DNA of 64,000 nucleotides, taken from Schmidtea polychroa (taxonomy: Eukaryota). Below, in pieces: positions 38,833-64,000 of the stretch (position 1 is the stretch's first letter; each line of letters starts with the position of its first letter). Both the position numbers and the translations under genes were made by a program. Under the pieces are notes generated by a model, which saw only the letters and a list, made by a program, of their open reading frames with translations, searched no databases and was not told the DNA's origin. The stretch lies in NCBI GenBank assembly GCA_044892525.1, contig CM097885.1, forward strand, positions 13,952,001 to 14,016,000, given 5' to 3'.

Positions 38833-38902
<70 letters not shown>

Positions 38903-41900: not shown

Positions 41901-42719
41901 TTCTAGAAATCTAATTAAAATCATAAAATTCCTTCAATAAAGATCAATTTTCTTTAGCCGTTGTCGATTTCCAACTTTTAAGTCAATATTTCTCAAGTTT
42001 TGTCACTGATGTCCCCACAATGAATAAAATAACTTCTTAAGTAAATAATTTAAAGCAATAACCTTTGATATCAATCCCAATTAATTCTAAAGATTTCAAA
42101 TATTTCATTGTGAAAACCAAGTAAATTGATCATTAACCCTAAACGACTTAATAAAACAGTGGATAATTAATAAAAAACTGGTTCTAAAACATAAATCTAA
42201 ATTACTGTGCAATAACATTCATCACAACCTAATAAACCTCTAAAACGATATAATTTCACAGGAACTATTATTAATTCATAGCTAAATTTGCCTAAATAAA
42301 ACACACCAGTACCTTTACGACCAGTACCCTTACGAGCAGTACCAATTGTGAACAGTACCCATAGAGGGAGAAAATATCTTGTCGGATAAACTCAGAGTAT
42401 ATATAATAAAACGAATTAACAATAACTCCATCAAATTGAATCAGTCAAATTAACACAAATTTTGATAAAAAATCTTATTCTAAAATGGTAAGAAGCGTAA
42501 AGTCGAAAGATAATTTTAATAACACCGAGATAAATTAACAATATTATTCTCAGGTGGTAAGAATCTTCATTAAAGTTAGGAAATTATTTATTATTCTGTG
42601 ATAAATTAATAATAAACTTCAAAGGGGTTAAAATAAGTGTTAGAATAATTCATTTTTGGATTATGGAAGGTTAATGAAAATATACTGAGAAGTGGCATGG
42701 ATATATATTAATTGTATTT

Positions 42720-43798
42720 AGTAGTATGATTGGAGCTCCCCAGATCAGGAGCTCCCCGCATCACATATACCCCCTCCCCCCCCCCCCGGAAAAAAAAATT
42801 TTTAGAACGATGCCACATATTTTTAGAACTATTACGTAATCAATGCCTAATATTTTTAGAACTATTACGTAATTTTTTTTAAATTAAGTGATCTGGCGGG
42901 CTCACACTTTTTTTCATCCCAAAAGTTAATGTTCCCACCATCAGAGTTTATTGACCGATACCTCATCTTAAAGCTCAGTCCAAGACCTTTCGAATGAGCT
43001 ATAGGTATCTTATATATCTTTAATAGTTTTAATATTATTAACATTTGATGACCACCATCTTTTCAAAGTTAAATTATTATTATTTTCCAAAATATTATTA
43101 AGTGATCTGGCGGGCTCACACTTTTTTTCATCCCAAAAATTAATGTTCCCATTATCCGAATTTATTAACCGATACCTCATCTTAAAGCTCAGTCCAAGAC
43201 CTTTCGAATGAGCCATAGAAGGTATCATCATCATTATTATTAACAAAGAGAATGAGTCACCCAATGACTCACCCAACGATGCCTAATATTTTTAGAATGA
43301 TTACGTCATAATTTTAGAACGATGTCTATTATTTTTAGAACGATGCCTAATATTTTTAGAATGATTACGTCATACTTTTAGAGCGATGCCTAATATTTTT
43401 AGAACGATGCCAAATATTTTTAGAATGATTACGTCATACTTTTAGAATGATGCCTAATATTTTTAGAATGATTACGTCATACTTTTAGAACGATGCCTAA
43501 TATTTTTAGAACGATGCCTATTATTTTTAGAATGATTACGTCATATTTTTAGAATGATGCCTAATATTTTTAGAATGATGCCAAATATTTTTAGAATGAT
43601 TACGTCATACTTTTAGAACGATGCCTAATATTTTTAGAACGATGCCAAATATTTTTAGAATTAATAATTTTGTTTTAATTATCGATGATTATATAATTTT
43701 GTTTAAATCATTGATTATATAATTCTTTTGTTTTAATTATCGAATACGTAATAATATAATTTGTTTAAATCGTTGATTACATATTATTATTTTCTAAG

Positions 43799-43840
<42 letters not shown>

Positions 43841-43941
43841 CATATATACACCGAGTCTATCCGACAAGATATTCTGTCCCCCTATGGGTACTGCACACAA
43901 GGGTACTACTCACATTCAACAAGTCACATGGGTACTGTTCA
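42720..43941 (+). repeat. Left TIR of the Maverick, with about 21-bp tandem array (gatgcctaatatttttagaac)
   Basis: Reverse complement of 57719-58943, with internal repeat-number differences. Confidence 0.9.
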
Positions 43942-44298: not shown

Positions 44299-47200
44299 TT
44301 AATCACTCAATTGTACATCATCAATATCAATTTCGTCACTCAATTGTACATCGTCAATATCAATTTCATCATTAGGATCATCACCAGAATCGAAATCTGG
44401 ACTTAAACCATTGAAAAGTGGACCCACTTCCTCATCACCAGAAACAAAATCTGGACTTAATCCTCCGAATAGTGCCCCAACTTCTTCAAATATTTGATCA
44501 TCATTTATATCATCTAGTGCTAAATAATGACCAAATGCGAGACTGGAATTTTTCCCCACCCAAAACCGCTTGTCGTCGTTGTTTGACAACGCGATTTTAT
44601 TGTTTTTAAATGTGTACAATTGATGGTTCCGCGTCCCTATCTTACTTTGTGGCACAGAAAATACTACGTTGTTATTGTAGCATTCTAAATATGAATCGTG
44701 CCTAATTTCTGTACCTATTAACCTAACTCCTTTTGCCTTTAAATGATCTTTAGCCCCTAACAAACTAAGAAAACCCATTCCTTATACCCTAGACTTTTAC
44801 TTTCATCTTTAAATTTACCTATCACCGAATCAAGGTTTCTAGAGTATAAGGGATGTGCAGGGTCATAGTTGGAAGTGTCTAAAAGATTGTCACGAATCAT
44901 TGCCGGCAAAAGAATGTCAAGCTTACAGTGCCTAACCTCAAGAAAAAAGGAGTCAGTATCGCCGGCAACGATATTTATCTCACATTTAAATTCATTTCTA
45001 TATTTAGCCAATTCTTTATACTGTAACTGGTACATCCTCAGTTTAGACAGGTCTAGCACCGTTTGGCCAATGTAACTAGGCCTGTCTAAACATATAGAAT
45101 CCTTATATAGATGTGCAGCAATCAAGTCATCATCAATTTTGATAGATTTCTTGAAAGTCGGCTTTGAAGCATATACAATCATCTTTTCAGCTGAATTGCA
45201 TAGCCTCAAATTCATCCGTTTTTTAAGGTTTTCTACGGATTTCCCATACAGACTATTATTAAATAATTTGTATAGATCCCTATATAATTCGCATGTAGAA
45301 TTGGCTCTCAAATTAGTGTTTTTGTCTATGTAAGATTTGAAAATGGGTGCATGCTTAAATTTGATTGCTCTATGTACATTTTTAATAATAGCCCCCAATT
45401 CTATATACAACTTGAGAAGTCGCCAATGAAGAACATGGTTCTTCTTCGGCCAATGCGTGAGCATCAGCTTCTCAACTTTAGAATTTGGCGGGCACATCTT
45501 TTCCGGAGCAAGAGGAAAATCATTCAGAAAGTCATGCAAACAAACAGGTATATCGATATCTACTTCCATAGTATAGCCATATGGAAGGTTATCGATATCA
45601 GCATTTATACATTCATTCAAGACAGAATCAAGATCATCATACACCCAAACAAAGTCAGCATAAGGCAGATTTTGGCTTAAGGCCCAACCATACAAGTTAT
45701 TAATATCAATATACAAGAGTTCTGTGTCTTCAGAACTTGCAACATAATGTTTGTTAACAAATGTTAACCCACCCCGTATCCCTCCTTCATAGAAATTAAA
45801 CATTTCCATGTCCTGCAGAAGTTCAATGGGTTCCGTTAATGTCATAAGCGCAGAGGCCCAAGACATACCGGGAATGCCATAGAAATTAAGAGGCTCAAGA
45901 CCATTGTAAGCAATGGCCTTTGCACGGAATTGTTGGAAATAGTCTGCGAGGAGAAACACGTCTAATTTAAGGTAAGTTAACATGTAATCTAACATGTTAT
46001 TGCAGTTTTGCTGAGTCCAAATTACTTGAGCTAATGCATATTCATCATTAGACACAGAATCCCAGATAGGTGGCAATTCAAGAGTCGATTCCAGAACCTC
46101 AAGAGATGTGGCAAAGTCATAAGGAAAGATACCTTTGGCTCGAACAATTGCGCCATCGAAAACAGAAGAAGTTAAAGGCAGATCGGAAAGAGTCTTAACC
46201 GCTTTTGCTAAAGATGAATTAACAAACTGCATGCTGTCAATAAAACGAACAGACAATTTGTTAATGTACGCGATAAGAGAGATGAATTTCTCAGTAGTGG
46301 TCGGAATAATATTTAATTCCCAAGAAGGAAAATTATTCAAACCATACTTCAAAATATGATGAAGATCATACCCCCTCAAATTGTGAAAAACCACAGGTAA
46401 CTGTTTCTGAATTCGTCGAGAAACATTACATTTCCTACAGGCAGCACCAAGATACTTACCTGAAAAGTGACAATGATCCCTAACTCTATTTCTAATGAAT
46501 TTTTTACAAAGGTAGCAGGTTCTGGAATCACGAAAGGCCCGCTCTTCAGCGAAAGACAAGGTTTGCATGGGCTTTTTCCCATTAATTTCGTAATATGGCA
46601 GGACAATTGTCATAGCAATTTCCTCCACCTTACGCAAGAAAGATAAGATACAATCATCCCCAACAAACTCATAATAAAATTTAGAGTTATTATAATTATT
46701 TATTAATAATAAACCTGCTGTTATTGGCAAATGCTTTTGATGGTGTATTATATCCCCCGGTAAAATTGATTCAAAGTCTGCATATATCACGAATGGTGGG
46801 GTTATGGTTTTCGCATAATTTTGAAAAATTAAATTTTTATCTTTGGGTAGCGTGTATAATGTAGTTCCTATCTGGTTTTTAATGCATAAGGCGACATGAA
46901 TATCAAATGCATTTTTATGTCTAAATCCGTTAAGACAATGGGGGCACCAGTTCACTTGAAGTCTAACGCCACATTCACTGCTAGAGCGACAATTCATTAG
47001 TCTTTGTAAGTTAAAAACTGCAGTATAATGGAAATTATCACCGTCTTCCAATAAAAGTAAGTATATGGGTTCACCACCTATAACCTTAGATCGGTGAATA
47101 ATATCTAATTGAGGATGATGTGGAATATAATTATCGTCAACTATATTTTCAAAAGGCTTAGCAGAGGTCGTTCTATAAGTTAAAACATTTATTGCTAAAT

Positions 47201-48305
47201 TTAAATCCTTATTTTTCATCTCGAATTTAGGAATATCACATAATTTCATTGGACAGTCGGAAATGGGGTCAAAATTTAACTCATCAAGATAATTTTCATA
47301 GGAACTAACTCTATTTCTATTTATATGTACAACATTACGTTTTAAAAGTGCTAAAATACTATATATAAAGCACATATCATCGGTGTTTTTGACGTTTACT
47401 ATTGCATTTTTAGATTTTAAAGATGATGGGGTGGGGATGTAACTATGTCCAGCTAGCCTATTCATATGTGTAAATTTTGTTAATATAAAATCTATTTCTT
47501 TGATTTTAACAACCCGCCATCCACTACCCAAATATGTGAATTTTTCTATTTTATTATTTAATTTGTGAACCCCCTCACTTAGAAAACTATCTGAAAAAGC
47601 CTCTGCCCTATTCGAGAAGAAATTATCTTTAATTTCACCATCTTTTTCAAATTGAATCAATACAGAGAATTGTATTTTCACCGACCCCATTCTGATTATT
47701 TCATGTTTTAACTTATTAACGATTTTATCGGTTATGGATATTTGAATGATGTTATCCTTTTCTACATTAAATCTTAGATTCTTTCGAACCCCCTTAAAAT
47801 CAATTTCGATTTCAGGTTCATCGTCAATATCGACTGAACCGCCTACTTGAATATTATTAACCACAGTTATTTGTTCTAATTTATTAATTTTAGAGGGAGC
47901 ATCAGACCCAATACTAACAGCAGGTCTTTTTAAATTATTATTTACATTAATAACATTATTAATTAGAGGTTTTGTAATATTATTTACATGTTTTGTATTA
48001 TTATTTACAGGTTTTGTAATATTATTTACAGGTTTTGTAATATTATTTACAGGTTTTGTATTATTATTTACAGGTTTTGTAATATTATTTACAGGTTTTG
48101 TATTATTTACATTAGTTTTAATTATAGGTTTTGCAGTATTTCGTAGTTTGTTAAATAAATCCTTTTTATTTAAAGAGAACTGATTTAAATGGGATTTATG
48201 TATACTGTAAAACTCTAAATATTTAATGCTATGGGAAGTCTCGCATATTGGGCATATATAGTACTTGATGCCATAAAATTTACGACCATAATATTTTTTC
48301 ATCAC
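44299..48305 (-). pseudogene. Protein-primed family B DNA polymerase (pPolB), frameshifted at about 44765
   Basis: Exonuclease motifs YADFES, FHNLRGYD and YLKLDV. Polymerase motifs YIDINNLYG, KLFNNSLYGK, GDTDS and GKFKDE. KAKGV and DDKR lie in another frame. An EndoVII-like RDHCHFSGKYLGAAC..CN motif is present. Confidence 0.93.
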
Positions 48306-49282: not shown

Positions 49283-49322
<40 letters not shown>

Positions 49323-49397: not shown

Positions 49398-49580
49398 TTT
49401 TCTTCATCATAATATTTTCATCATTTTCTTCATCATAATATTTTCATCATTTTCTTCATCATAATATTTTCATCATTTTCTTCATCATAATATTTTCATC
49501 ATTTTCTTCATCATCATAATATTTTCATCATTTAGTCAACATAACATTTTCAATTTCATCATAATATTTTCTTCATTTTC
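49398..49580. repeat. About 26-bp tandem repeat ttttcttcatcataatattttcatca
   Basis: Direct reading. Confidence 0.85.
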
Positions 49581-49682
49581 ATAATAAGTTTTTATAAATA
49601 AGTTTTTAAAGAAAATGTTTAAAAAGTATTTAAGAAATTTACAAGGTTTTTAAAAAAATAAATATATAAAAATAAATAAATA

Positions 49683-50247: not shown

Positions 50248-50479
50248 TTTAATTTAAAATTTGTAAATTTAAGAATAATTATGACAAATTTTAGAATTGT
50301 CAATGTTTATATAGAACAGGAATATTTCCATGTCTCAACCAATCAGAATTAAGACACATTCCTGAATACTTTTTCCTCTATCAGCCAATCAAATGGTAGC
50401 AAATGGGATTGCATATCTTTGTGCATGCACAATGTTTGTGTAGTTAGATAATAATATTTTTCAAAATAAATTTAATTAA

Positions 50480-50489
50480 AAATAATAAT

Positions 50490-50520
<31 letters not shown>

Positions 50521-50579
50521 TTAATAATAATAATAATAATGATATTAATAATAATAATAATATTAATAATAATAATAAT

Positions 50580-50610
<31 letters not shown>

Positions 50611-50621
50611 TTAATAATAAT

Positions 50622-50700
<79 letters not shown>

Positions 50701-50773
50701 TAATAATAATAATATTAATAATATTAATAATAATAATAATAATAATAAAATAATAATAATAATAATAAAATAA

Positions 50774-50804
<31 letters not shown>

Positions 50805-50805
50805 A
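50480..50805. repeat. (AAT)n microsatellite inside the Maverick
   Basis: Direct reading. Confidence 0.95.
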
Positions 50806-50834
50806 ACAACAACAAAGGATACAAAATACATTTA

Positions 50835-51246
50835 TTAATCATCAAATTTTTTATACAACAACCAAGCTAAACAATGTTGACCGCATGTTTGTGTCAAGGG
50901 ATTTTGAAACATTGTTTTATTATATACAATAGGTTTCCCCATTGTTTGTAGTTTTGATACCAACAAAGCAGGGTAATAGAAACCCATAGGATCGAACACG
51001 AATATATTACTAGGTTTCACATATATAGCAATCCAATGTTCTCCACCAAGATGAGACGATTGAGTATTGACGATTATGGCTTGATTATTGCTCAAATATG
51101 GGATTTTATCGAGAGGAAAAACTCCTACAAATTCATTTCCCAATATCTGTTTTCCAATTCTATTGACCTGAACAGAACTACTTTAATAAATTAAACAGTA
51201 TTGAAAAACTTACTCCATGACAACTTTTTGGTGTTTCTGTATACAT
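50835..51246 (-). CDS. Adenain-like (C5) cysteine protease; probable exon 1 at 51214-51246, intron 51168-51213
   Basis: FVGVFPLD, IVNT...GEHWIA, FDPMG and Q...TQTCGQHC give the H-D-Q-C catalytic set. Confidence 0.9.
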
Positions 51247-52470
51247 TTGTACTAGCACGGTTCTATTTGCAGTAATTTGAACTTCATTTTCAAATACTCC
51301 ATATATTATAACATGTACTGGTTCAGTAATGGCCTTTGCAAACTTTATATCCAGTCGTAAATTCCCGTTTTGTGGTAATTGACTCTGATTTAAATCAAAA
51401 TCGGGAGCTAGAACAAATGTGAAAAATGGGTATTTTCTTTTAAATTCTTCAAGAGTTATTCCGCAATTCAAGTTTTTATCTAAATAACCCAGATTTCTAA
51501 CAATACTCTGCATATATGTCGCACAGTAATTATCATTCTCGAAATCTTGAGTATATGTTTCTCTATAATCAGTATTTTTCGATAAAGTCAATGAAGTAAC
51601 ACCAAAATTTTTGAAAATTGAGCTGGAAGCAGTATACGATCCATTATATTGCGTTTCACTTTGAAATGTTACCAGAATAAAATTAGGCATTCTTCTGTCA
51701 CCAAATATTTGTTCTTTATAGAATGATGAAGCACCTTTAGCAATAGCAAATTGTACAATTTCCTTTGTTTTTAAAGGATAAATTGCATGTTTTGAATTAA
51801 GCCCCAATTGATGACCAGCTAATACTGACGGGTCTACTCGAACTCTTCTCACCAATAATTTTGCATCAACTAATTGACATATTGGTGCACCAGTTGCACT
51901 AGTAAGAGACAATGCAGAATCAGATCTTTTCAGTCTAATATGTATATTAACTCCCGGTAGTAAATATTTCGGTTGATCCAAAAAATCAAGTTGTAATGAT
52001 GAGCACATAGTGAATACTTTTGAACCTTTAACCCACTTTTTTCTTTCATCATCTGCTGCTGCATAACCCATAGGTGTAAGACAGGTATTTTTAGTATCTG
52101 AATTGTAATTTAAAATAGTTTCTATCAAAGCCTTGTGAATGAATGTATTATTTCCACCCTCAATCTTGATATTATTAAATCCCAACACTGCATCTTTAAA
52201 CAGAGTATGAAACATGAAATTGTTTGGTAATACATCCGCATTGGCATCCAAAACCTTTCTATCTTTATCTACAACCTTGATCTGAACAGTCAATAAAGTA
52301 TCGTTCAAATCTAAATATTCAGTTTGCGAACCATTAATATAAAACTCGATATCATTTCTACTATCAGTAATTGAATTCATAGGAAAAACTTCCTCAAAGG
52401 CACCAAATTCTATTACTGCCTGGGGCGACGGTCTATCAAATATACATAATTCGGATTTACCACAAATCAT
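51178..52470 (-). CDS. Major capsid protein (double jelly-roll, hexon-like)
   Basis: KSEL.IF..P..Q, IEFYI.G...YLDLNDTLL, LDFLDQPKYLLPGV.I.IRL.R and GNLRLDIKF are typical of Maverick MCP; gene position fits. Confidence 0.85.
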   Translation of the reverse strand: MICGKSELCIFDRPSPQAVIEFGAFEEVFPMNSITDSRNDIEFYINGSQTEYLDLNDTLLTVQIKVVDKDRKVLDANADVLPNNFMFHTLFKDAVLGFNNIKIEGGNNTFIHKALIETILNYNSDTKNTCLTPMGYAAADDERKKWVKGSKVFTMCSSLQLDFLDQPKYLLPGVNIHIRLKRSDSALSLTSATGAPICQLVDAKLLVRRVRVDPSVLAGHQLGLNSKHAIYPLKTKEIVQFAIAKGASSFYKEQIFGDRRMPNFILVTFQSETQYNGSYTASSSIFKNFGVTSLTLSKNTDYRETYTQDFENDNYCATYMQSIVRNLGYLDKNLNCGITLEEFKRKYPFFTFVLAPDFDLNQSQLPQNGNLRLDIKFAKAITEPVHVIIYGVFENEVQITANRTVLVQMYTETPKSCHGVSFSILFNLLK

Positions 52471-52829
52471 TTTGCAAATATAGTTCCATGTCCTTTCATT
52501 CGTTTGTTTATACGCGATATTCCATGTCCTTTACGTTTTGGCGCTGGGACTGGAGGTGTATCTTTTTGAAACATACCAGCAACTCCAGGTAGAACCTTCC
52601 CTAACTCAGCTAAAGCATTTGTTTTTAGGGATGGTAATATTTTCTGTTCATTCATAATCACATCTTTTGCAGTTTTCATGCCAAAACTACCAATACGTTT
52701 AAGAATGGGAAGTGCAAATCTCCCTATTGTTTTTAACCAACCTGATCCATACTGTTTACCAATAAAATATGGTAATTCACCACCAGATTGGCTATCACTA
52801 TACATACTAATAATATCGGAATTAGCCAT
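52467..52829 (-). CDS. Small basic virion core-like protein with an amphipathic helix
   Basis: QSGG, QYGSGWLKTIGRFALPILKRIGS, KRKGHG; lies between mCP and MCP. Confidence 0.7.
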   Translation of the reverse strand: MANSDIISMYSDSQSGGELPYFIGKQYGSGWLKTIGRFALPILKRIGSFGMKTAKDVIMNEQKILPSLKTNALAELGKVLPGVAGMFQKDTPPVPAPKRKGHGISRINKRMKGHGTIFAK

Positions 52830-53889
52830 CTACTTTACGAAAATGTAGTGTCAAATGAGTTTTTGAGTCTTTTGGGAAGTTTATAAGTTTTCCACTATCG
52901 TCACGAATATTTATTTCTATATTGTTTATACATGAGCTTGAAATTGGTAAATACATGGGATTATCTATATTTATATTGACAACTTCATCATGTTCATATT
53001 TTCCAATCCACACCGATTTCAATAGAGGAACACTGGAATCACCAACTATTATAGGCTCAATAATATTAGTATATATGAACATTTGTTGATGATGTTCAAG
53101 TATTCTTGGTTTACGTATACCAGCCGATTTTTCCCGATATTGCTGCTTCTCTAATCCAAGTGTATTTGTCAAATTTTTATCAAATGTAACTTCGCAAATG
53201 TCATCATTCAAACTGAAGGTAAATAACAAATCTTTCACAATATCCAAACTTTTAAATATGTGTGAACAATTATACTTTAAATATTTAAGTAACACATCAA
53301 GTTTATCAATATATAATTCGTCAGCGAAGGTGAATGATTCTTCAACTTCATTATTATACGACACTGAAATTTTGATTTCTTCTCTCATTACACTGTTTGC
53401 TTCAAATAGATCAAAGCGTAATAAATATTCTGTTTCCATAACTTCATTTTTCAACTTATTGCAACCCATTCGTCTGGCATCTTCAATATATTCGAATGTT
53501 ATTGTAAATGGTTTAAAATCACAACTGATATTTAATCCATCCTTGTAAAACATAGTGCAATGCTGATCTAATATTTGATTCGGAATATGATATGTTTTAT
53601 CATAATTACTGATAATAAAGATACCACTACATGTTTTCATAGCATTCCTTTTGAAATCAATCTTACATTGACTATAAAATGGGAATGTATTGTACACGAA
53701 TGTAAAATCTTGCAGTGCAACTTCCCAGTCACCATTTAAAGAAATCGGATTCTGGAGATTGACCATGAATTTACTGGCTTGATTATCTGGATGAATAAGC
53801 GGGCAACTATTGCTTGGTAAAATAGTATAAAAATTCACTTTACTAGATCCTTTTCTGATATCCATGATGGGTTTTGATAACCATGCCAT
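52822..53889 (-). CDS. Minor capsid protein (penton-like); start uncertain
   Basis: FYTILPSN...F.V.L..PI.L.G.WEVAL, YTNIIEP.IVGD..VPLL, IEINIRDDSG..I.F and LTLHFRK. Confidence 0.85.
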   Translation of the reverse strand: MAWLSKPIMDIRKGSSKVNFYTILPSNSCPLIHPDNQASKFMVNLQNPISLNGDWEVALQDFTFVYNTFPFYSQCKIDFKRNAMKTCSGIFIISNYDKTYHIPNQILDQHCTMFYKDGLNISCDFKPFTITFEYIEDARRMGCNKLKNEVMETEYLLRFDLFEANSVMREEIKISVSYNNEVEESFTFADELYIDKLDVLLKYLKYNCSHIFKSLDIVKDLLFTFSLNDDICEVTFDKNLTNTLGLEKQQYREKSAGIRKPRILEHHQQMFIYTNIIEPIIVGDSSVPLLKSVWIGKYEHDEVVNINIDNPMYLPISSSCINNIEINIRDDSGKLINFPKDSKTHLTLHFRKVDG

Positions 53890-54890
53890 TTGACATAGTA
53901 TTGTTTATCCTTGCCTTTATTTTTAGTTTTCAAAATCTTCTGAATTCTAAATACTTTTGGGGGAGGAATAACTTGTAATTCCTGCTCATAAAATTTTCCT
54001 TGTACAATATTGTTATCATTGTCTTCGATGACATACATTACAGGATTCTGTTTAGTATTTATTTTTGAAATTACAAAGACTTCATCACACCAATTCGTAT
54101 CAAAATTTTTAATAAATGGTGATGCACTAATTTTACTAATTCTAACATGGTCACCTACTTTATATTTCGGTTTTGTAATTTTTTCATGTTTTTTAGAATA
54201 GATTGTTTTTGACGTGATATCAATCGGCCTTAATCCATTCAGTCCTTGATGTGATGAGTGATTATAACTGGTTATTATTTTTGGTAAAACCGATACCCAT
54301 TTTTTATTACCTTGATGCACGAATAATTTCTTTAATCTATCTCTCAAAGTTCGGTTAAATCTTTCAACATGAGCAGCTTTGTATTGAGAATGTACTGAGT
54401 AATGGTTTATTTTCATTTTATTGAGGATTTGCTTGACTTTACTGTTGTAGAATTCTTTACCTAAAATAATAATAATAATAATAAAAATAATAATATTAAT
54501 ACCTAAATCAGTTTGCAAGTTTTTAGGATGTCCATCTTTAAATAAATGATTAACAGCTTTGGACATTTCATCTGCAGATTTTGCCTTGACGGGTATTGCT
54601 CGGGCAAACCGACTGAATACATCAATACATGTTAAAATATATTTATACCCATTGTTAATTTTCGAATAGGGTATCATCTCCATCAAATCCATTTGCCATA
54701 AATCATTTATTCCATATGTTTTATATGCTCTTGTTGGGAATCGTTTCTGCATTGGTTTGTTCAAACTGTACGCAAGCTGGTCTGATAACCACTTCTGAGT
54801 TTCCTTTTTCGAATTCGGAACTCTTTTCCTTAATTTTGCCACTCCACCAAAACCGGCTTCGTCTTCCGGGTTCGTCCAAATCTTCTCCAT
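53835..54890 (-). CDS. Retroviral-type (c-)integrase with C-terminal chromodomain; intron 54461-54502
   Basis: WQMDL, CIDVFSR, QTDLG/KEF, ERFNRT, YNHSSH and a chromo-like YYVKWHGY...SWI. Confidence 0.95.
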   Translation of the reverse strand: MEKIWTNPEDEAGFGGVAKLRKRVPNSKKETQKWLSDQLAYSLNKPMQKRFPTRAYKTYGINDLWQMDLMEMIPYSKINNGYKYILTCIDVFSRFARAIPVKAKSADEMSKAVNHLFKDGHPKNLQTDLGINIIIFIIIIIILGKEFYNSKVKQILNKMKINHYSVHSQYKAAHVERFNRTLRDRLKKLFVHQGNKKWVSVLPKIITSYNHSSHQGLNGLRPIDITSKTIYSKKHEKITKPKYKVGDHVRISKISASPFIKNFDTNWCDEVFVISKINTKQNPVMYVIEDNDNNIVQGKFYEQELQVIPPPKVFRIQKILKTKNKGKDKQYYVKWHGYQNPSWISEKDLVK

Positions 54891-54951
54891 TACAACAAGA
54901 AGATTTAATATTAAATTTAATGTCTGGTAATGAAGGATTAGCACCCATTGT

Positions 54952-55440
54952 TTATGATCGACTTCCTATTATTCCACCTAATAATGATATTGCTAAAGGT
55001 ATCAATGCACCGATAAATCCCCCTTGTTGTTTATATATAATTTTTCTCATTTGTTGACGATTTTTATTATTTACTAATGATAGCAAAGGTTTCCTATGTT
55101 TACTCAATAATTGCTTTTTAGATTTACTGATTTTAATCTTGCCTTTGACTACTTTAAGTATAATATCGAGTAAATCATCGACAACATAATTTGGAAATGA
55201 TTGCAAAATACTGTTTCTTTTCATACTTGGTGCCTTTAACAATGTATTGAAAAACGGGAAACTCCGATGATTTTTAACAACTTTTACTTTCTTAGTGGTT
55301 TTACTTTTAGGTTTAGGATTTTTCGAAATAAGATTCATTGCAGGAAAATTTTCTGTAATAAGTTCTTTAGATGGAGTATAACTAGTTGTTGGTGGAACTT
55401 TTGGTTGTTTTTTACCCGATATCCTTGTTTTTGAAAACAT
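54952..55440 (-). CDS. Basic Maverick structural protein with C-terminal QQGG-FIGALIPLAISLLGG hydrophobic peptide
   Basis: Lys-rich ORF between ATPase and integrase, with a GG/F adenain-like cleavage motif. Confidence 0.7.
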   Translation of the reverse strand: MFSKTRISGKKQPKVPPTTSYTPSKELITENFPAMNLISKNPKPKSKTTKKVKVVKNHRSFPFFNTLLKAPSMKRNSILQSFPNYVVDDLLDIILKVVKGKIKISKSKKQLLSKHRKPLLSLVNNKNRQQMRKIIYKQQGGFIGALIPLAISLLGGIIGSRS

Positions 55441-55453
55441 GATTTATATGTTT

Positions 55454-56092
55454 TCAACTTTGTTTTGAACTTTGTTTATATACCATGGCACCTTTTGGGT
55501 TGAAAATATCTGTTTTTACGCGTATATCATCAGGGCATTGTTGTGTGAAATCGAGAAATATATACCCATGCGGTATTTTCGTGGCATCTTGAAATGCACT
55601 GATAAGAAAATTACGGTTATTAGGGTATGCTTGTCGTCCAAGAAAATCAATGACAGTTGCATCTCTAGGATTCTTGAAAATAACTAAATATTGTACATTT
55701 AAATTACGTGTTCGATGTGCACCACCTTGATGAAATAGATTTTGTGTTATGAAAATAACTGTTACACCAACATGTCTGCTGATTTTTGTGAATAAATTAT
55801 TAAAGTCCTTTTCTTTATTGGCTTCTTGATACAAATCATCGATAATGATGACATCATCTTTCTTCAAACGACTTGACCAGTTTTTATCAAAGCCCTTTAC
55901 TATTTTCATGTTTTTCAACTGACAGAAACTTGATTGCGTCAATCCGTGTTCTTCGTCGGCGCCCCTATGCCAATAAATATTGTTGAATTTTGTTTTAAAC
56001 AAATTTGATTTTAGTAATTTACAAACAAATAAAGTTTTCCCGCTACCACTTGGACCAACGATTTGGTATACTGCATCATTTCGTAATTCCAT
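55454..56092 (-). CDS. FtsK/A32-like DNA packaging ATPase
   Basis: Walker A GPSGSGKT, Walker B IIIDD, FTKISRH...IFITQN and FKNPRD. Confidence 0.95.
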   Translation of the reverse strand: MELRNDAVYQIVGPSGSGKTLFVCKLLKSNLFKTKFNNIYWHRGADEEHGLTQSSFCQLKNMKIVKGFDKNWSSRLKKDDVIIIDDLYQEANKEKDFNNLFTKISRHVGVTVIFITQNLFHQGGAHRTRNLNVQYLVIFKNPRDATVIDFLGRQAYPNNRNFLISAFQDATKIPHGYIFLDFTQQCPDDIRVKTDIFNPKGAMVYKQSSKQS

Positions 56093-56202
56093 TTTTTAAA
56101 TTTAAACTATATAATTATTGTTTATATTGATAATTTAAATGAACTCTGTTTTTAAATACCTATATATATATATATCAAAGTTTTTAAAATTATTTCATTA
56201 AA

Positions 56203-56667
56203 ATGCTTTCAAATATAAATTACAGGGCAAAAACTGATGTATCAAAAATGGTATTTCCAATAGGGAAACCACAACAACTTATCAATAGAAGTAATAAATA
56301 TCCAATAATATATTTCAAAACTGGTAAATGTAGAATTATGGGGTGTAAGGAAATAATCAAAGCTAGTGAATATAATGTTTATGATTTAGAAATACAATCG
56401 ATAACCGTAACTTCCGATATAGGTTTTTCTTGTAATTTAAATAAATTAGCTAAATTAATACCATGCTTTTATGAACCAGAATTATTTCCAGCTTTGAGAT
56501 ATATAAAATATAACCCTATGTGTGTAAATATATTCGCTAGCGGTAAGATAGTAATTCTTGGAATAAAAAATATTGATTACAAATGTATAGTTGATAATAT
56601 CATATCTGAAATTAAATCAATAATTGAAGGAAAAGAATTTTTAGATTTTTTATTATCACTTAATTAA
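56203..56667 (+). CDS. TATA-box binding protein (TBP)-like protein encoded by the Maverick
   Basis: Two TBP repeats: LSNINYRA...IIYFKTGKCRIMGCK and IQSITVTSDIGF...LNKLA...YEPELFPAL...VNIFASGKIVILGIK. Confidence 0.88.
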   Translation: MLSNINYRAKTDVSKMVFPIGKPQQLINRSNKYPIIYFKTGKCRIMGCKEIIKASEYNVYDLEIQSITVTSDIGFSCNLNKLAKLIPCFYEPELFPALRYIKYNPMCVNIFASGKIVILGIKNIDYKCIVDNIISEIKSIIEGKEFLDFLLSLN

Positions 56668-56775
56668 TTATTTATCATTCAATTAAAACAAAAACATACT
56701 GCAATCTGATTGGATGATAAACAATAGTCATAGGTATAAAAACCCTGTACCATTTCATTTTAATCATAATTCACA

Positions 56776-57195
56776 ATGACCAAGAAAATTTCAAGCACTG
56801 AAAAACCAAAAGTAGTTCCAGAACTTGTACAACCTGTTCAAATGTTCCACAACTACAAAATGTATTTTTTAAAAGAAGAAATCAATATGAAATTGGTGTC
56901 ACCGATCAAGCTAATTCCTACCCAATTTCAATTCTTAACCGGCACGCTTTCAATGTTAGATATTAAAACCATAGATGATGTTTTCAAAAGGTTGAATACG
57001 AATCTATCATGCAATCAAAATGCATTTTTCAACAACCGATATGCAAAATTTTATGATTCCTTTGATGAAATCAGTTTCAAAGAAAACGAAAATTGGTATA
57101 TATCAATTACAATCCAAGGATATAAAGTTGATAATAATGATGTGTATTCTCCAATTTGGAAAATTATGTCTGCTAGACTTTCACAGTTATTTTAA
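56776..57195 (+). CDS. Hypothetical Maverick protein, 139 aa
   Basis: Clean ATG ORF, preceded by TATAAAA (about 56735) and a reverse CCAAT box (about 56710). Confidence 0.65.
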   Translation: MTKKISSTEKPKVVPELVQPVQMFHNYKMYFLKEEINMKLVSPIKLIPTQFQFLTGTLSMLDIKTIDDVFKRLNTNLSCNQNAFFNNRYAKFYDSFDEISFKENENWYISITIQGYKVDNNDVYSPIWKIMSARLSQLF

Positions 57196-57291: not shown

Positions 57292-57650
57292 ATGACTACA
57301 GAAAAAGGTTAATATGATTAGTTAATTATCGAATTATTTAATATTTAGAATTTATAATAAACTTTTTATTGGAAAAATTAGCAGAAATATCTGGTGTGAA
57401 AATGGCGGATATATTATCTGTTACAAACGCATTAAATATAGACTGGGTAGCAGAGAGTGAAGATTCGGAATTTGATGAAACAGATGAAGAAAACACTCAA
57501 GATGATGAGGAAAGCATTCAAGAAATTGATGAACCTATGGAGGAATTTACGGATACTGAACCGTGTGTATATAGGGATTGTATAGATCATGTTGTTGAAA
57601 ATGTTATGAACTGTGGAGATGATGAATGTGAATGTGTTAATAAATTTTAG
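57292..57650 (+). CDS. Spliced acidic protein (MTTEKEFIINFLLEKLAEISG...); intron 57308-57348
   Basis: A 41-bp GT-AG intron joins ATG 57292 in frame to ORF 57369-57650. Confidence 0.65.
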
Positions 57651-57718: not shown

Positions 57719-57818
57719 TGAACAGTACCTTGTGACTTGTTGAGTGTGAGTAGTACATTTGTGTGCAGTACCCATAGGGGGACAGAATATCTTGTCGGAT
57801 AGACTCGGTGTATATATG

Positions 57819-57857
<39 letters not shown>

Positions 57858-58943
57858 CTTAGAAAATAATAATATGTAATCAACGATTTAAACAAAATTA
57901 TATTATTACGTATTCGATAATTAAAACAAAAGAATTATATAATCAATGATTTAAACAAAATTATATAATCATCGATAATTAAAACAAAATTATTAATTCT
58001 AAAAATATTAGGCATCGTTCTAAAAGTATGACGTAATCATTCTAAAAATATTAGACATCGTTCTAAAAATATTAGGCATCGTTCTAAAAATATGTGGCAT
58101 CGATTACGTAATAGTTCTAAAAATATTAGGCATCATTCTAAAAATATTTTTGAAAATAATAATAATTTTTTCATCAATCAGTGTCGGACTAAAAAATTAA
58201 TAACTTTTATACCACTAGTGATAAAAATTATTTCGATAGCTCAAAAGATTTGTCTCCGTCTGGTCTTCAAAATGATGTATAAATATTCAAATAAATTTGA
58301 AAACTCAAAAAGTTCTGGGAAGTCAAAAGGTAGGTCACCGCCAGCACAGTTAATAATATTTTTGAAAAATAATAATATGGCATCGTTCTAAAAATATGTG
58401 GCATCGATTACGTAATAGTTCTAAAAATATTAGGCATCGTTCTAAAAATAATAGGCATCGTTCTAAAATATTAGACATCGTTCTAAAATAAGAGGCATCG
58501 TTCTAAAATAAGAGGCATCGTGCTAAAAGTATGACGTAATCATTCTAAAAATATTAGGCATCGTTCTAAAAATATTAGGCATCGTTCTAAAAATATTAGA
58601 CATCGTTGGGTGAGTCATTGGGTGAGTCATTCTCTTTGTTAATAATAATGATGATGATACCTTCTATGGCTCATTCGAAAGGTCTTGGACTGAGCTTTAA
58701 GATGAGGTATCGGTCAATAAAATCTGATGGTGGGAACATTAACTTTTGGGATGAAAAAAAGTGTGAGCCCGCCAGATCACTTAATTTAAAAAAAAATTAC
58801 ATAATAGTTCTAAAAATATTAGGCATTGATTACGTAATAGTTCTAAAAATATGTGGCATCGTTCTAAAAATTTTTTTTTCCGGGGGTGGGGGGTATATAT
58901 GATGCGGGGAGCTCCTGATCTGGGGAGCTCCAATCATACTACT
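57719..58943 (-). repeat. Right TIR of the Maverick
   Basis: Mirror of the left TIR; carries an extra block at about 58150-58375. Confidence 0.9.
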
Positions 58944-61900
58944 GTATTTATTTAAAATTATTTCATAAAATTCATAAATTTCATAAAAATTCATAAAAAA
59001 CGTTCACTTTAATAAAAAAAAAATATTTAATACAATTTTAAAAGAAAAAAATTTGCCGGGAGAATATAAATGATAATAATTAGTAAGAAATCGAGAGTCG
59101 GCGGCTATAAGTGATGAGGATATATAAAATTATTTCTATTATATGAGCTACTAACGAATTAAAATATTTTAATAATGTGATAAACTTTTATTTAATAAAG
59201 TATTTAATCCCCAAATGATTATTTTATTACATAAGAAACCGTGAATTGTATTTGACAGAGTAATTATGATAAATTCATATTTTAAATTATTCTTTAAGTC
59301 CTTTAATATTAACAATTTATTATTAAATTTACTATTTTACACTAATTATTTCATTTTCAAAAACAAATATTCCAAAAGATAATTTAAGATACATTACTCT
59401 TTTTAATGAAAATGAGCACTGAAAGTTAAAAGGTACACTCGAAAACTCACTCAAATATAACCGAAAGTTATAAAACAACAAAACTAAATTCGTTTAAATA
59501 TTTTATAGCAATTGGTAGTTCTTATAATTTCCTAACTTTAATGAAGATTCTTACCACCTGAGAATAATATTGTTAATTTATCTCGGTGTTATTAAAATTA
59601 TCTTTCGACTTTACGCTTCTTACCATTTTAGAATAAGATTTTTTATCAAAATTTGTGTTAATTTGACTGATTCAATTTGATGGAGTTATTGTTAATTCGT
59701 TTTATTATATATACTCTGAGTTTATCCGACAAGATATTTTCTCCCTCTATGGGTACTGTTCACAATTGGTACTGCTCGTAAGGGTACTGGTCGTAAAGGT
59801 ACTGGTGTGTTTTATTTAGGCAAATTTTTGGTTATTATTTAGCATTAAATTCGTTGGTAATTTTTAGAGTTAGCGGGATTTTACTAACATTATTACTAAC
59901 CTTTTTGTGAATAATTGAAAGAATATTTTGAAATTTAACGTTTTAGTGTTAATTCTAAGACAAATTTAATTAATTTCTTGATAATTTGCTATATTTTATT
60001 GACTTGTTTTTAAATTTACTTTTAAATAAAAATTATTTTTAATGACAGTTAGGTTAATAATTAGAGTTTTTACAATAATCAAGTGATTATTATTTAATTT
60101 TTGTAAAATATATTGTAAAATATACTGAAATTTGTGATTTTGAAAGATATATCACGTTATAATTGCTATATAATTAACTGAATCGATGAAGAATTATGAT
60201 CAATCGATATATTTCATTTCTAGATAGGTATTTGATGGTAAATGTGGTGAAATATTTGTAGAAAATATTGATTTTAGTGAATTTTGATCTTTTAGTGGGC
60301 TCTTACTACATGAATTTAGATACTAAATTATTTCAATGGAAGGATGTCTGTAACAATTAAATAAAATTCATATTTTGAAGAATTTTCTATGGATTTTAAG
60401 AGAATTGATATATTAAAGTCGGTTGGTTAAGATGGTAATATATGATTTTTAAGGGGGTGTTTAAAATGATAGAAATATTTGGTGAGGGATCGGTTAAGGT
60501 GGAAATGTTTGAAATCTCTATTTAAATCGACAATGTTCTTATTGGTAAAATTTTAAAGGGAAATAGTCAGTATTTAGCTATGAATTAATAATAGTTCCTG
60601 TGAAATTATATCGTTTTAGAGGTTTATTAGGTTGTGATGAATGTTATTGCACAGTAATTTAGATTTATGTTTTAGAACCAGTTTTTTATTAATTATCCAC
60701 TGTTTTATTAAGTCGTTTAGGGTTAATGATCAATTTACTTGGTTTTCACAATGAAATATTTGAAATCTTTAGAATTAATTGGGATTGATATCAAAGGTTA
60801 TTGCTTTAAATTATTTACTTAAGAAGTTATTTTATTCATTGTGGGAACATTAGTGACAAAACTTGAGAAATATTGACTTAAAAGTTGGAAATCGACAACG
60901 GCTAAAGAAAATTGATCTTTATTGAAGGAATTTTATGATTTTAATTAGATTTCTAGAAATTAAATCGGTTGAATATTAAAGGTAAAATCTATTGAAGGAA
61001 TATTATTATCGGATGGATAAATGATATTTTCCTAAATTACCTTATTATATTATTATTTTAAGGACAAAATTAACCAATATTCATAAATTGATTGCACAAA
61101 ATATCCATGTTTTGGTTACTCAAACATCTTAAATTTCTCGCAAAGATATACTACGCCCAATGATCATCTAATTAAATTAGAAAATAATTGTTACTTTATA
61201 ATATATATTTCTAACTAATAAGCCCCTTAATTGGATAAATGATAACCATATTTCTATTATGACTCCTTTAATTATTTTTGCCTCAAACAAATTTACTCCA
61301 AATGATAAAGAATTTAAAATTATCAATGAATAAAGACCATGTTTTTCTCATATTATTAACTATTGTAACGAACATTAGATGAATAAATTACCTTTTGCTT
61401 TAAATGACTACAAAGTTAACCAATAAATTAGTCGCTCGACATAAGTGTAAAGTTATATTTAAAATATTCACAAATTTCTGATCATCTCACCTAAGAATTT
61501 CTAAATGATTAATATTGCGACATGTTGAATGTGACCAGTACCCTTGCTAGCAATACCCATAGGGGGACAGAATATCTTGCCGGATAAACTCGGAGTATAT
61601 GGTCTTTATTGATATATCAAAATACTGTTATTTATAAATTAACTAAAACATACTCAAAAATACTATATTATTTTACTGAATGATACCGTAAATGTTTTTA
61701 CTATACCTATTTCTAAATAAATCGACAGCTCAGACCACCAACATGTATGTATGACTACCCATTGTTAATTTATTTCCAGTGACACGTCCCTTAAAAATAC
61801 CGTGAGTGTTTTAACAAAACTGAGCTCAAAGAAACTTTCCAGATAACAACTCACCTGAATGTTTTGAACAAAAATGAGCGAAATTGAGAACAAACGATTA

Positions 61901-62239
61901 GATGGCGATTAACTTCTGGCCACAACCCTAACAACATGAAAATTAAGATTTTAATTATTGAATTCGTTGTTTTCTGCCTGGAAATACTAACAGAATATTT
62001 TTAATTCAAAGAATCTTCATTATAAATTTTTGAATTTAAAAAATTAAATTAAGGATATATTAAATTTACAATACATAATATTATAATATTATAATATTAT
62101 ATAAAATTATATAAAATTATACTATATAATAATATTAATGTTTAAATATGCTTAAATAACTAAAGTGTTTAAATATGTTTAAATAACTAAATTTAAATTA
62201 TTTAAATATAATTCTGATTTAACGTTATTTCTTTCGTTT

Positions 62240-62936
62240 TAGTATCCATAAAGTAAGTAAATAAAGAATTTACTAAAATATTTTAATTATTTTACTTAGT
62301 AATGAAGAAAATGAATTATATGATTATGAAGAAGATGAACCAGATAAAATGGTGAAACACTAAAAGACTTATGTTCTGGATTTAGAGATTTCTTATTAAA
62401 ACATGAATTATTGGATTATGAAGAAGTTGAACCAGACAAAATGGTGAAACACTAAAGGAGTTATAGTTCCGGATTTCTTAAATGAATTAGCTGATTGGGG
62501 GTGTCCTTCAACATGAATTATCAGACTTAAATTATGTAAACTTTCAACGAATGTCAAGAAAAAATGGGAAAAACCGATGTTTTATCAATTAAGTAAAGTA
62601 CTCGTCATACCTGAAGAATATTATTATTAATGTAAGATATGAATTAATTCTTTAAAATATATATATTATATTTAGGTATCTGTGTTTTATGGTGGGAAAT
62701 GACATTGAAAAAGTATACCACAAATAACAGTTGCCTAATTTATCAAGCCTGTGACGATAAAATGCTAGATAATGTAAGTTAATTGCTTTTAAATCAATAT
62801 AAATTTTAGCAATGATAGTTGACACAGCATCAGAAACTAAGAAATATGTCCAATTTGCAAGATGTATTCCAAATGGCCCGATGGAGATGATAATTTTGAG
62901 ATAGAATACCAGCAGAAGAGCGAGAAAAATTTGTAA
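62240..62936 (+). pseudogene. Multi-exon gene remnant in the outer element arm; mirror at about 39935-40610 (-)
   Basis: gtaagt...ttag short introns flank coding-like blocks (VLQHELSDLNYVNFQRMSRK; YLCFMVGNDI; CLIYQACDDKMLDN). Frames are disrupted. Confidence 0.4.
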
Positions 62937-64000
62937 ATTAAATATAATAGGGTTGGGTGGGTCCTCTTTATCCCTTAATTAATATATATTTACAAGCTGA
63001 TCGTCGTGGTGGGCGGTTGTAATCCAACTAGTGGGAGGCCTCTGTAAATATATATTTGTGTTAGTGAAAACATTAATTAATTTGGTTATAGTGCCAATGA
63101 CGCATGTATTTTGAAATTATACGTTTCGAATGTGCTGGTAGTTGACTACCCATGCTAGGCGTAATGTTCCGTACGGAAAGCTATAATGCCCAGGTTCTTC
63201 TGACCCCACTTGGGGAGGCACAGACGACCCTTGTGGACGCGAACAAATATCCACCGTGTCTTTCAGGCACAGATATTTGGTCACTGCTCATTAGGCCTGG
63301 CAATACTAAACGCATAAACTTTGCCTTGTCTTCTCTTGTCTTGATTTTTTTTCGTTTAAATATTAAAGTATTATTTACTAACCTTAATTAATATACCCTT
63401 GCGATATGTTGAGTGTGGGTAGTACCTTTGTGACCATTACCCATAGGGGGACAGAATATTTGGTCGGATAGGCTAGGAGTATATTCACCCATGTTAAACA
63501 AGGTATGTGTATATAGAATGTATGTATAAAATTATCGCTCCTTATTGACAACTTCCTGTAAAGGCAAACACAGAATACTGCAAACATAATAATACTCTAC
63601 GCCATAACTTAGTATGTAAAAATTATTTAAGGTTTTTTCACTAATAATAATAATAATAATAATTGTTAATGGGTTGTGTGTGTGTGTAAAAAATATTTGA
63701 GGTTTTCACTAATATTGATAATAATAATGGTTTATGAGTGTTTTTATGTTTTTGACTAATATTTGCAATAATAATAATGGTTAATGGGTTGTGTGTGTGT
63801 GTGTGTAGAAAATATTTTAGGTTTTCACTAATATTGATAATAATAATTGTTAATGGGTTGTGCGTGTGTAAAAAAAAAATTTTAAGTTTTTGACTAGTAT
63901 TTGCAATAATAATAATATTGATAATAATAATTGTTAATTGGTTGTGTGTGTGTTTTTATGTTTTTGACTAATATTTGCAATAATAATAATAATAATAATA

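Follow-up and report, generated by a model that had tools for sequence, protein, structure and literature searches.

We analyzed a 64,000-nucleotide stretch of the Schmidtea polychroa genome (GenBank assembly GCA_044892525.1, contig CM097885.1, positions 13,952,001 to 14,016,000 of the forward strand; hereafter, the window), which carries a Maverick/Polinton-type, adintovirus-like element of ~25 kb. In the unique core of this element, between its long inverted arms, lies an open reading frame (ORF) for a 154-amino-acid (aa) relative of the TATA-binding protein (TBP), and this gene, together with the promoters of the genes around it, is our subject. We find that the ORF is a genuine, selected member of the TBP superfamily and a standing gene of a large Maverick/Polinton-type lineage, and that the late genes of this lineage carry a promoter word, YATAAACR, that is nearly missing from the promoter of the TBP-like gene itself. 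The gene and the arms that enclose it are as follows.

56203..56667, + strand: TBP-like gene, 154 aa, ATG start, stop-free, no splicing required
38880..43931, unstranded: left terminal inverted arm, with inverted pairs I1-I11 and tandem repeats, without a long ORF; 21-bp AT-rich arrays
57728..63916, unstranded: right terminal inverted arm, with inverted pairs and tandem repeats; the same 21-bp arrays; may continue past the window end

The arms pair over ~39261-43931 and ~57728-63588 (~4.7 and ~5.9 kb) with 91-100% complementarity, as expected of terminal inverted repeats, and judged by their mirrored terminal tandem repeats they probably extend to ~38880 and ~63916. An original prediction for this locus had placed an intact, intronless 154-aa ORF inside such repeats, and its placement and its integrity were both confirmed.

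The element protein is a reduced, asymmetric TBP

The TBP-like protein scored 56.4 bits against the Pfam TBP profile PF00352 (E = 2.8e-15; curated gathering cut-off 22.9), which places it in the TBP-domain family. Because the sequences that it matches in the PDB are nearly all TBPs (35 of 38 distinct sequences; best match the archaeal TBP 2z8u, 1.5e-16; the remaining three at chance level, E~1), its identity as a TBP is far above chance. Residues ~55-146 are the only stretch that matches TBP by sequence, with the single query and with the family profile, and both repeats of every solved TBP map onto it; by sequence comparison alone, therefore, the protein holds a single canonical TBP repeat, the C-terminal one. 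This repeat 2 (YEPELFPAL ... NIFASGKIVILG) aligns closely with cellular and archaeal TBP repeats, and in its 'IQN' motif the Asn is replaced by Ser. In a 30-member family alignment (37-60% identity), 20 invariant columns are spread over both halves of the protein; they include I5 N6 Y7, F38 G41 C43 R44 M46 G47, F111 and, in the E-P-E-L stirrup of repeat 2, the part of cellular TBP that contacts the TFIIB family, E91 P92 E93 and F95, with L94 nearly invariant.

Structure prediction and profile comparison extended the likeness to the whole protein. An AlphaFold2 (AF2) model built from the 30-sequence alignment had a mean predicted local distance difference test (pLDDT) score of 93.8 and a predicted template modeling (pTM) score of 0.82. 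Residues ~60-153 of the model run S1-H1-S2-S3-S4-S5-H2, a complete TBP repeat 2, and residues 1-59 form four strands (E2-10, E25-28, E35-38 and E42-48) plus a one-turn helix, with no H1 or H2. All 44 Foldseek matches to the PDB at E ≤ 0.001 were TBPs, the next match being unrelated (2.4e-2). VIA-align superposed 142 residues on human TBP 163-337 (Z 12.2, root-mean-square deviation 2.5 Å), so that the saddle fold is present; the 38 TBP entries scored Z 9.9-12.2, and unrelated entries reached at most Z 6.5. Profile-profile alignment (hhalign) against seven two-repeat TBPs was collinear across both halves (probability 99.4%, E 1e-21), pairing the N-terminal half with S2-S5 of TBP repeat 1 and leaving a 13-residue gap at the position of the repeat-1 helix H2; the first 12 residues of the query correspond to S1, with no space for H1.

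The same alignment located the four Phe positions at which TBP kinks and intercalates DNA. Three of these pair with F38, F95 and F111, which are invariant, and the fourth is occupied by a family-invariant Pro, P23. A canonical TBP/TRF is recognized by four DNA-kinking Phe and by two complete S1-H1-S2-S3-S4-S5-H2 repeats; the element protein keeps three of the Phe and one of the repeats, repeat 1 consisting of strands only. As modeled, the TBP-like protein is thus a reduced, asymmetric TBP derivative without repeat-1 helices, not a canonical TBP/TRF. Invariant DNA-face residues within the reduced half (F38, G41-G47) argue that both halves may still act on DNA.

Several features had been anticipated by the original prediction, namely a repeat 2 close to that of cellular TBP, three retained Phe out of four and no N-terminal tail (strand S1 begins at residue 2), and these held up, as did the identification itself under the profile and structure searches that it had proposed. 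Its reading of both TBP repeats was right for repeat 2, which is canonical, and needs amending for repeat 1, which lacks its helices and is recognized only by profile-profile alignment and structure. Likewise, it had described the first-repeat stirrup as shortened and divergent; repeat 1 is indeed reduced, but the main loss is that of helices H1 and H2, not just of the stirrup.

The gene is conserved across a large element lineage

We searched the host genome (781 Mb, 1012 contigs) and scored 150 matches among 4137 first-look candidates. All 150 encode a 100% identical, stop-free protein, and because they do, the element looks very recently active in this genome, which makes an experimental system plausible. 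At the DNA level, 12 copies were 95.1-99.6% identical; these were chosen as best protein matches, and their perfect protein identity reflects ascertainment, not selection. A Pfam-TBP search of the same genome gave further short frames of other lengths, eight of which were fetched, and three subfamilies (154, 156 and 170 aa) emerged, each intact. In all eight sampled host-genome loci the TBP-like gene divergently adjoins the packaging ATPase gene, and the core gene order is the same. Between the three subfamilies, the ratio of nonsynonymous to synonymous substitution rates (dN/dS, Nei-Gojobori) was 0.17-0.36, with dS saturated at 1.0-2.2, indicating purifying selection; within subfamilies the ratio rests on 1-9 differences per pair and is uninformative.

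Relatives are also abundant outside this genome. A word-indexed search returned 97 proteins at E ≤ 0.001, mostly of 145-160 aa and 33-60% identical, mostly over ~90% of the query; precomputed annotation assigns PF00352 to all 97, the JGI pipeline labels 13 as TBP, and every one comes from a metagenome or read-archive assembly. An exhaustive search with a profile covered 1.84 billion cluster representatives; 62 of these matched at E ≤ 1e-30 and 800 at the looser E ≤ 1e-10, and short forms of full length kept appearing down to ~1e-18. Among metagenome contigs, 266 pattern matches yielded 135 that encode a relative, of which 80 loci were kept; with L001, the one locus that IMG/VR yielded for the TBP-like alignment, these make up 81 TBP-bearing loci, mostly short. 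Homologs of the element's ATPase, orf139, integrase, orf355, capsid candidate and polymerase genes recur among them (counts in the feature list below), and six long loci (L007, L013, L040, L051, L056 and L057) carry most core genes. L001 was afterwards rejected as a family member: it is a fragment of a large DNA virus (1-20273) whose 182-aa TBP is an ordinary two-repeat form (124 bits) and which also has a heliorhodopsin-like gene, a family-B polymerase and both subunits of ribonucleotide reductase.

We placed these proteins in a maximum-likelihood tree of 47 rows, comprising 37 short forms and 10 two-repeat TBPs. A 100/100 branch splits the short forms from the two-repeat TBPs, the host's intronless two-repeat paralogs (214 and 202 aa) group with eukaryotic TBPs (92/99), as does the TBP of L001, and the three genomic subfamilies interleave with metagenomic members. 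Because of this deep branch, the position of the host paralogs elsewhere and the interleaving, the phylogeny indicates that the TBP-like gene is old within the element lineage and not a recent capture from this host. The original prediction had proposed such a tree and dN/dS across copies as checks, and had named a one-off, neutrally evolving capture absent from sister Mavericks as the finding that would speak against it. What we observe is three intact subfamilies under purifying selection and a large metagenomic family, with the gene linked to the ATPase in the host genome and syntenic across the metagenomic loci.

Some further observations concern the family and its hosts. Compared with window positions 55454-56667, five loci of the 170-aa subfamily (L105, L107-L110) are 93-95% identical in the ATPase and only 56-58% in the TBP-like protein, which therefore suggests that the right-end module has been exchanged between element lineages or evolves much faster there; in the same loci orf355 is 87.7-96.4% identical by piece, and orf139 was not detected. 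Two members of the short family, P0163 and P0201, form a 100/97 pair in which the N-terminal half seems cut to an 'F-x-x-x-K-C-R-L-M-x-C-K' strand pair, with a long linker of low complexity between this and repeat 2. The host genome itself holds an intron-bearing TBP locus (L094/L101) in addition to the 214- and 202-aa intronless paralogs and one more partial paralog (L097/L098, L100/L103, L099/L102); the intronless paralogs are divergent and sit on long tree branches. Intronless frames of ~301-310 aa with a TFIIB-cyclin domain occur at 13 places in G000 (C1:23.85-24.19 Mb and C3:38.2-39.1 Mb; L120, L121). The 301-aa ORF of L120/L121 opens with a Cys-rich, zinc-ribbon-like segment, and in L120 a fragment of a Maverick polymerase lies ~2 kb from it; these frames may be a host gene expansion or the cargo of another element.

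Gene content of the element

The remaining features of the element are listed from the promoter region of the TBP-like gene outward, with the number of the 81 TBP-bearing loci that hold homologs.

56093..56202, unstranded: divergent promoter region of 110 bp between the ATPase and TBP-like genes; TATAAACAA toward the ATPase; (TA)n at ~-43 to -28 of the TBP-like ATG
55454..56092, - strand: A32/FtsK-type packaging ATPase, 212 aa; Pfam Pox_A32 31.1 bits (cut-off 22.8); 27/81 loci
54952..55440, - strand: orf162, conserved; no Pfam family; 8/81 loci
53835..54944, - strand: rve-type integrase with a C-terminal chromo-like stretch; Pfam rve 33.0 bits (cut-off 32.6); 19/81 loci
52822..53889, - strand: orf355, conserved, putatively a minor capsid or other virion protein; no Pfam match; 14/81 loci
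52467..52829, - strand: orf120, small conserved; 7/81 loci
51178..52470, - strand: probable double-jelly-roll major capsid protein, 430 aa; Atlas look-alikes; 12/81 loci
44757..48305, - strand: family B DNA polymerase of the protein-primed type, 1182 aa; insert resembling Endonuclease VII; 8/81 loci
44299..44778, - strand: orf159, small conserved, downstream of the polymerase; 8/81 loci
56776..57195, + strand: orf139, co-conserved neighbor of the TBP-like gene; 20/81 loci
57369..57650, + strand: orf93, acidic small ORF; similar frames in L106 and L111, none in metagenome loci

Several of these assignments need a word on their basis. The chromo-like stretch of the integrase scored 20.4 bits against Chromo, under that profile's cut-off of 25.1. 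The capsid candidate had no Pfam match, and 13 of its 30 Atlas matches are clusters with PF21738 DJR-like_dom (score 0.98, on 30-65% of members), a lead only. The polymerase was assigned from motifs and Atlas leads: DFES (509), KLFNNSLYG (1012) and GDTDS (1113), corresponding to Exo I and Pol B/C, are seen in the sequence, and 25 of 30 Atlas look-alikes are DNA_pol_B_2 plus Endonuclease_7 clusters; Pfam gave no DNA_pol_B_2 and only Endonuclease_7 at 20.6 bits (under cut-off), and a PDB sequence search gave no match. For orf139, an AF2 model with pLDDT 88.6 had as its top four VIA matches phage DUF2815, African swine fever virus (ASFV) CP312R, the Enc34 single-stranded DNA-binding protein (SSB) and T7 gp2.5, at a middling Z of 6.6-7.0, and no Foldseek match at E ≤ 0.001; from this model, orf139 is a possible gp2.5-type OB-fold single-stranded DNA (ssDNA)-binding protein, and as a lead only it would fit an 'early' replication and transcription module at the right end of the element. 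No ORF in the window gave a protease family of the adenain-type cysteine kind in the Pfam scan.

Repeats occupy much of the remaining sequence. Arrays of an AT-rich unit of 21 bp, or two helical turns (ATGCCTAATATTTTTAGAACG and variants), lie at 38049-38598, 43275-43661, 57997-58102 and 58418-58607, and the arrays of both arms are a candidate origin, packaging signal or enhancer. Between the polymerase and capsid genes, ~2.9 kb (48306-51177) hold no real ORF and contain 58/59-bp tandem repeats with palindromic cores at 48744-49256; a (TAA)111 microsatellite at 50477-50806 mimics a 133-aa ORF here (50444-50845), which we dropped as a gene. Within the N-terminus of the polymerase (47934-48107, - strand), a 21-bp tandem repeat of 7.2 copies encodes a reiterated TKPVNN(I/N) peptide. 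Elsewhere in the window, 1-35245 is a giant, near-perfect inverted duplication that runs off the window start, with arms 1-14404 and 19014-35245 (98-100% complementary) around a ~4.6-kb center; it holds two TRAF-like frames, MATH (2483-3043) and zf-TRAF (3534-4001), and one for a DDE_1 transposase (10358-10825), and the opposite arm has a mirror copy of each.

Late genes carry a private promoter word

Upstream sequences in the window share a word, (T)ATAAACAA, which was first spotted within 120 nt upstream of the capsid, orf120, orf355, integrase, orf162, ATPase and orf139 genes. Its positions there are as follows.

52504..52511, - strand: ATAAACAA, 41 nt upstream of the capsid-gene ATG
52922..52929, - strand: ATAAACAA, 100 nt upstream of the orf120 ATG
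53901..53908, - strand: ATAAACAA, 19 nt upstream of the orf355 ATG
54948..54955, - strand: ATAAACAA, 65 nt upstream of the integrase ATG at 54890
55472..55479, - strand: ATAAACAA, 39 nt upstream of the orf162 ATG
56118..56125, - strand: ATAAACAA, 33 nt upstream of the ATPase ATG
56717..56724, + strand: ATAAACAA, 59 nt upstream of the orf139 ATG, followed by an ATTGG context and TATAAAA at -41

The word is not enriched in the window as a whole (12 occurrences against 13.6 expected), and only its placement is non-random: nine of the 12 lie inside a 4.8-kb gene block, all in sense orientation and all upstream of genes. Because it was chosen after inspecting the window, we tested it on the metagenomic loci. 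There, ATAAACAA occurred 72 times in the 49.5 kb of sense strand that lie at -120..-1 of ORFs 90 aa or longer, a density of 1.45 per kb in upstream regions versus 0.235 per kb overall. When every 8-mer at -70..-15 was scanned without bias across 410 ORFs from the 80 loci, TATAAACA ranked first (69 observed versus 4.9 expected) and ATAAACAA second (54 versus 4.6), the other top words being mostly overlapping variants.

We then compared gene classes after removing upstream regions at least 85% identical within a gene family, taking as late genes (n = 75) ATPase, orf162, integrase, orf355, orf120 and capsid, each over positions -70..-8. The core ATAAAC was found upstream of 49/75 late genes versus 3/64 TBP-like genes (Fisher, P = 9e-15), and the full TATAAAC upstream of 24/75 versus 0/64 (Fisher, P = 7e-8), and of 1/6 polymerase genes; in antisense orientation the word preceded none of the 75 late genes. 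The 107 de-duplicated occurrences of TATAAAC cluster by start position, with 40 at -40..-31 and 20 at -50..-41, and the flanks read Y-ATAAAC-R-W; the canonical TATA box, for comparison, is TATAAAAG. The distribution of host-type elements ran the other way: canonical TATAWAW preceded 27/64 TBP-like genes versus 12/75 late genes (P = 0.001), and a CCAAT/ATTGG box 17/64 versus 8/75 (P = 0.025). Among the canonical boxes of TBP-like genes, 25/30 fall at -50..-31, the bins where the late word peaks (32/72). The lineage thus has two promoter classes at equal distance from the ATG, a host-like one on the TBP-like gene and a private one on the genes for morphogenesis and integration. The orf139 gene of the window likewise has host-like features, an ATTGG box and TATAAAA.

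The sense-only orientation and fixed distance of the word argue that it may serve as a core-promoter element, and its presence on late genes versus a canonical TATA on the TBP-like gene suggests a possible early-to-late switch. The original prediction had put forward a private basal factor that redirects host Pol II to the element's late genes, an idea that now draws indirect support from a word that is oriented, set at a fixed distance and absent upstream of the TBP-like gene.

A possible early-to-late switch and its alternatives

Taken as a whole, the evidence inclines us, by a modest degree, to a mechanism in which the TBP-like protein would drive the element's late genes through the private TATA-like word YATAAACR. 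The TBP-like gene would be transcribed early, its promoter being of the host type, with a canonical TATA box and often a CCAAT box. Its product would then bind YATAAACR as a TATA equivalent, in sense orientation and mostly ~31-50 nt upstream of the ATGs of packaging, capsid, integrase and other 'late' genes, and the conserved stirrup (E91 P92 E93 L94 F95) would recruit a TFIIB-family factor to nucleate initiation by host RNA polymerase II. The outcome would be an early-to-late switch independent of the host's regulated TFIID. In cellular TBP, the repeat-1 helices form much of the upper surface for regulators, and their absence here may remove surfaces that host TBP regulators use. In crystal structures, TBP sets its C-terminal repeat over the 5' half of the box and its N-terminal repeat over the 3' half; by analogy, and speculatively, 'TATA' might be read by the conserved half of the element protein and the altered 'AACR' by the reduced one. 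A stronger form of the proposal, an autonomous two-step programme run by a minimal asymmetric TBP whose helix-less half has co-evolved with the 3' half of the word and which escapes host TFIID control, is one that we regard as tentative and would not yet back against its negation.

A number of points weigh against this mechanism. The protein and YATAAACR are linked only by co-occurrence and mutual exclusion, and the word could be one that host TBP or a different host factor reads. Because one Phe is lost and the 'IQN' Asn is a Ser, canonical TATA binding cannot be assumed. With a box 31-50 nt from the ATG and initiation ~30 nt downstream of it, leaders would be very short, which is unusual for animal mRNAs. 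Only 24/75 late genes have the full TATAAAC at -70..-8, and among integrase genes it is found in 0/14 and ATAAAC in 6/14. The word was a post hoc choice in the window, its independent test being the 80 metagenomic loci, which share no alignable non-coding DNA with the window; these loci are related to one another, so that the Fisher P values overstate independence. Scans of viral_contigs for sister elements that lack the TBP-like gene, run with the ATPase, with the capsid candidate and with an alignment of ATPases, gave no relatives. Among sequencing runs recorded as RNA, none contains the locus; contigs from four runs, three of them presumed to be RNA and one of unknown kind, span the gene block and carry no information on transcription. 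Finally, a complex prediction for the TBP-like protein with a host Brf1-like cyclin exon (L112 frame) scored 0.00 and, with its controls not run, is uninformative either way; in host TFIIB proper, an intron inside cyclin repeat 1 splits the coding sequence.

The co-occurrence leaves room for a reading in which YATAAACR is recognized by a host factor, either host TBP off-consensus or a forkhead-type protein, and the TBP-like protein has another or more general role, such as boosting all element promoters. The word mostly starts with TATAAA, which host TBP may well bind, and ATAAACA fits the forkhead core RYAAAYA. Its strict sense orientation (no antisense instance among late genes) and its concentration at -40..-31 are, however, typical of a core promoter and not of an enhancer; a conserved C at position 7 with a purine next to it, maintained across TBP-like proteins that are 33-55% identical, is unexplained by host TBP; and the systematic absence of the word from TBP-like genes, with its near-absence from polymerase genes, points to two promoter classes. 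We judge this reading unlikely, though not to be dismissed. The invariance of the TFIIB-contact stirrup residues E91 P92 E93 and F95, combined with the deletion of the repeat-1 helices, would also suit a decoy or competitor that occupies host TATA boxes or titrates TFIIB-family factors, its dead-end or unregulated complexes damping host transcription or evading repression. A decoy was the alternative offered by the original prediction. It leaves the private word and its exclusion from the gene's own promoter unexplained, the DNA-face residues kept in the reduced half argue that both halves work on DNA, and host shut-off would be costly for an element whose candidate places in the genome number in the thousands; we give it a small chance.

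An architectural role is suggested by the surroundings of the gene, which shares its 110-bp divergent region with the packaging ATPase, has a possible ssDNA-binding protein next door and lies between arms that hold arrays of the AT-rich 21-bp unit. On this account the protein would bend AT-rich DNA for replication or packaging, at the arm arrays or near the ATPase target. We think this quite improbable, as a purely architectural role does not require the invariant stirrup motif, and the 21-bp unit lacks the enriched word. Small size and the partial loss of repeat 1 are all that speak for a neutral, recently captured host TBP fragment without function. Full-length genes in three diverged genomic subfamilies and a large metagenomic family, the dN/dS values, the conserved synteny and the 100/100 branch that separates the family from host paralogs stand opposed to it, and as far as such comparative evidence goes a neutral captured fragment is excluded, its probability being negligible.

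If a TBP-driven late programme of the two-step kind does operate, no natural TBP would be smaller than that of the element, and a basal transcription factor would for the first time be assigned to a Polinton-class virus. Most double-jelly-roll DNA viruses of eukaryotes are regarded as descendants or near relatives of Mavericks/Polintons; to our knowledge, almost nothing is known of gene control in Mavericks/Polintons, and full reliance on the host has been assumed. A conserved element-encoded TBP derivative together with a private word makes this question testable, since it comes down to a single small protein, a word of 8 bp and promoters of two classes. A natural 'minimal TBP' without repeat-1 helices would also be a probe of the surfaces needed for DNA bending and TFIIB recruitment.

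Comparison with known systems

Cellular and archaeal TBPs (PF00352; for example 7egb_P, 2z8u and 1mp9) share with the element protein the same fold over the whole core, the repeat order and a canonical repeat 2 with the YEPELFP stirrup and both of its Phe. Unlike them, the element protein is ~35 residues shorter, lacks H1 and H2 of repeat 1, has an invariant Pro in place of one Phe and has no N-terminal tail; its gene is intronless, lies on a mobile element and is separated by the 100/100 branch from all sampled two-repeat TBPs.

The possibility, raised by the original prediction, that such a gene is undescribed must be tempered by one published label. The Figure 5 legend of Starrett et al. 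2021 (PMC8502044; preprint 10.1101/697771) marks a 'TBP' gene in a midsize linear double-stranded DNA (dsDNA) virus with an adintovirus-like PolB, and thus in the same broad element class. In the parts of that article available to us, TBP appears as a legend label only, with no structure, distribution, selection or promoter analysis in the text; one of its supplementary texts contains neither TBP nor TATA. A full-text literature search found no paper treating TBP in Polintons/Mavericks beyond this legend and the preprint, and no paper linking such a promoter word to Polintons. The accessible portions of two other articles mention TBP genes in mirusvirus-like elements (PMC10675990) and deal with host promoters, listing Polintons among repressed transposons (PMC10558129). 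A further candidate precedent, PMC12220804, was discarded, its 'TATA' matches being an author name.

Virus-encoded proteins with a TBP fold are also found in Nucleocytoviricota, among them those of Heterosigma akashiwo virus, Terrestrivirus and Marseillevirus and the homolog of asfarvirus B263R, and Foldseek against BFVD gave 20 matches at E ≤ 0.001 to such TBP-like proteins of large DNA viruses (best 2.6e-7). These proteins have the full two repeats or are larger, and they belong to cytoplasmic viruses with their own RNA polymerase, whereas the present family is a reduced TBP in small integrating elements that encode no RNA polymerase.

Closest in logic are the TBP-like late factors of beta- and gammaherpesviruses (BcRF1/UL87/ORF24), which read a non-canonical TATT late promoter: here, too, a nuclear DNA virus pairs a private TBP-fold factor with a private TATA variant on late genes. 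The herpesvirus factors are much larger and act in a multi-subunit viral complex, unlike the 154-aa element protein with a repeat 2 near that of cellular TBP; no sequence relationship was shown, and with weak fold matches (BcRF1, E = 6.4e-3; elephant herpesvirus U58, E = 1.7e-3) we compare the two in logic only. The design principle common to herpesvirus late-gene viral TBPs (vTBPs) and giant-virus TBPs would here be seen in a much smaller and older class of element. The element TBP is thus a reduced form of the virus-encoded TBP, itself a known class, and what is new is a lineage-wide gene accompanied by a conserved private word.

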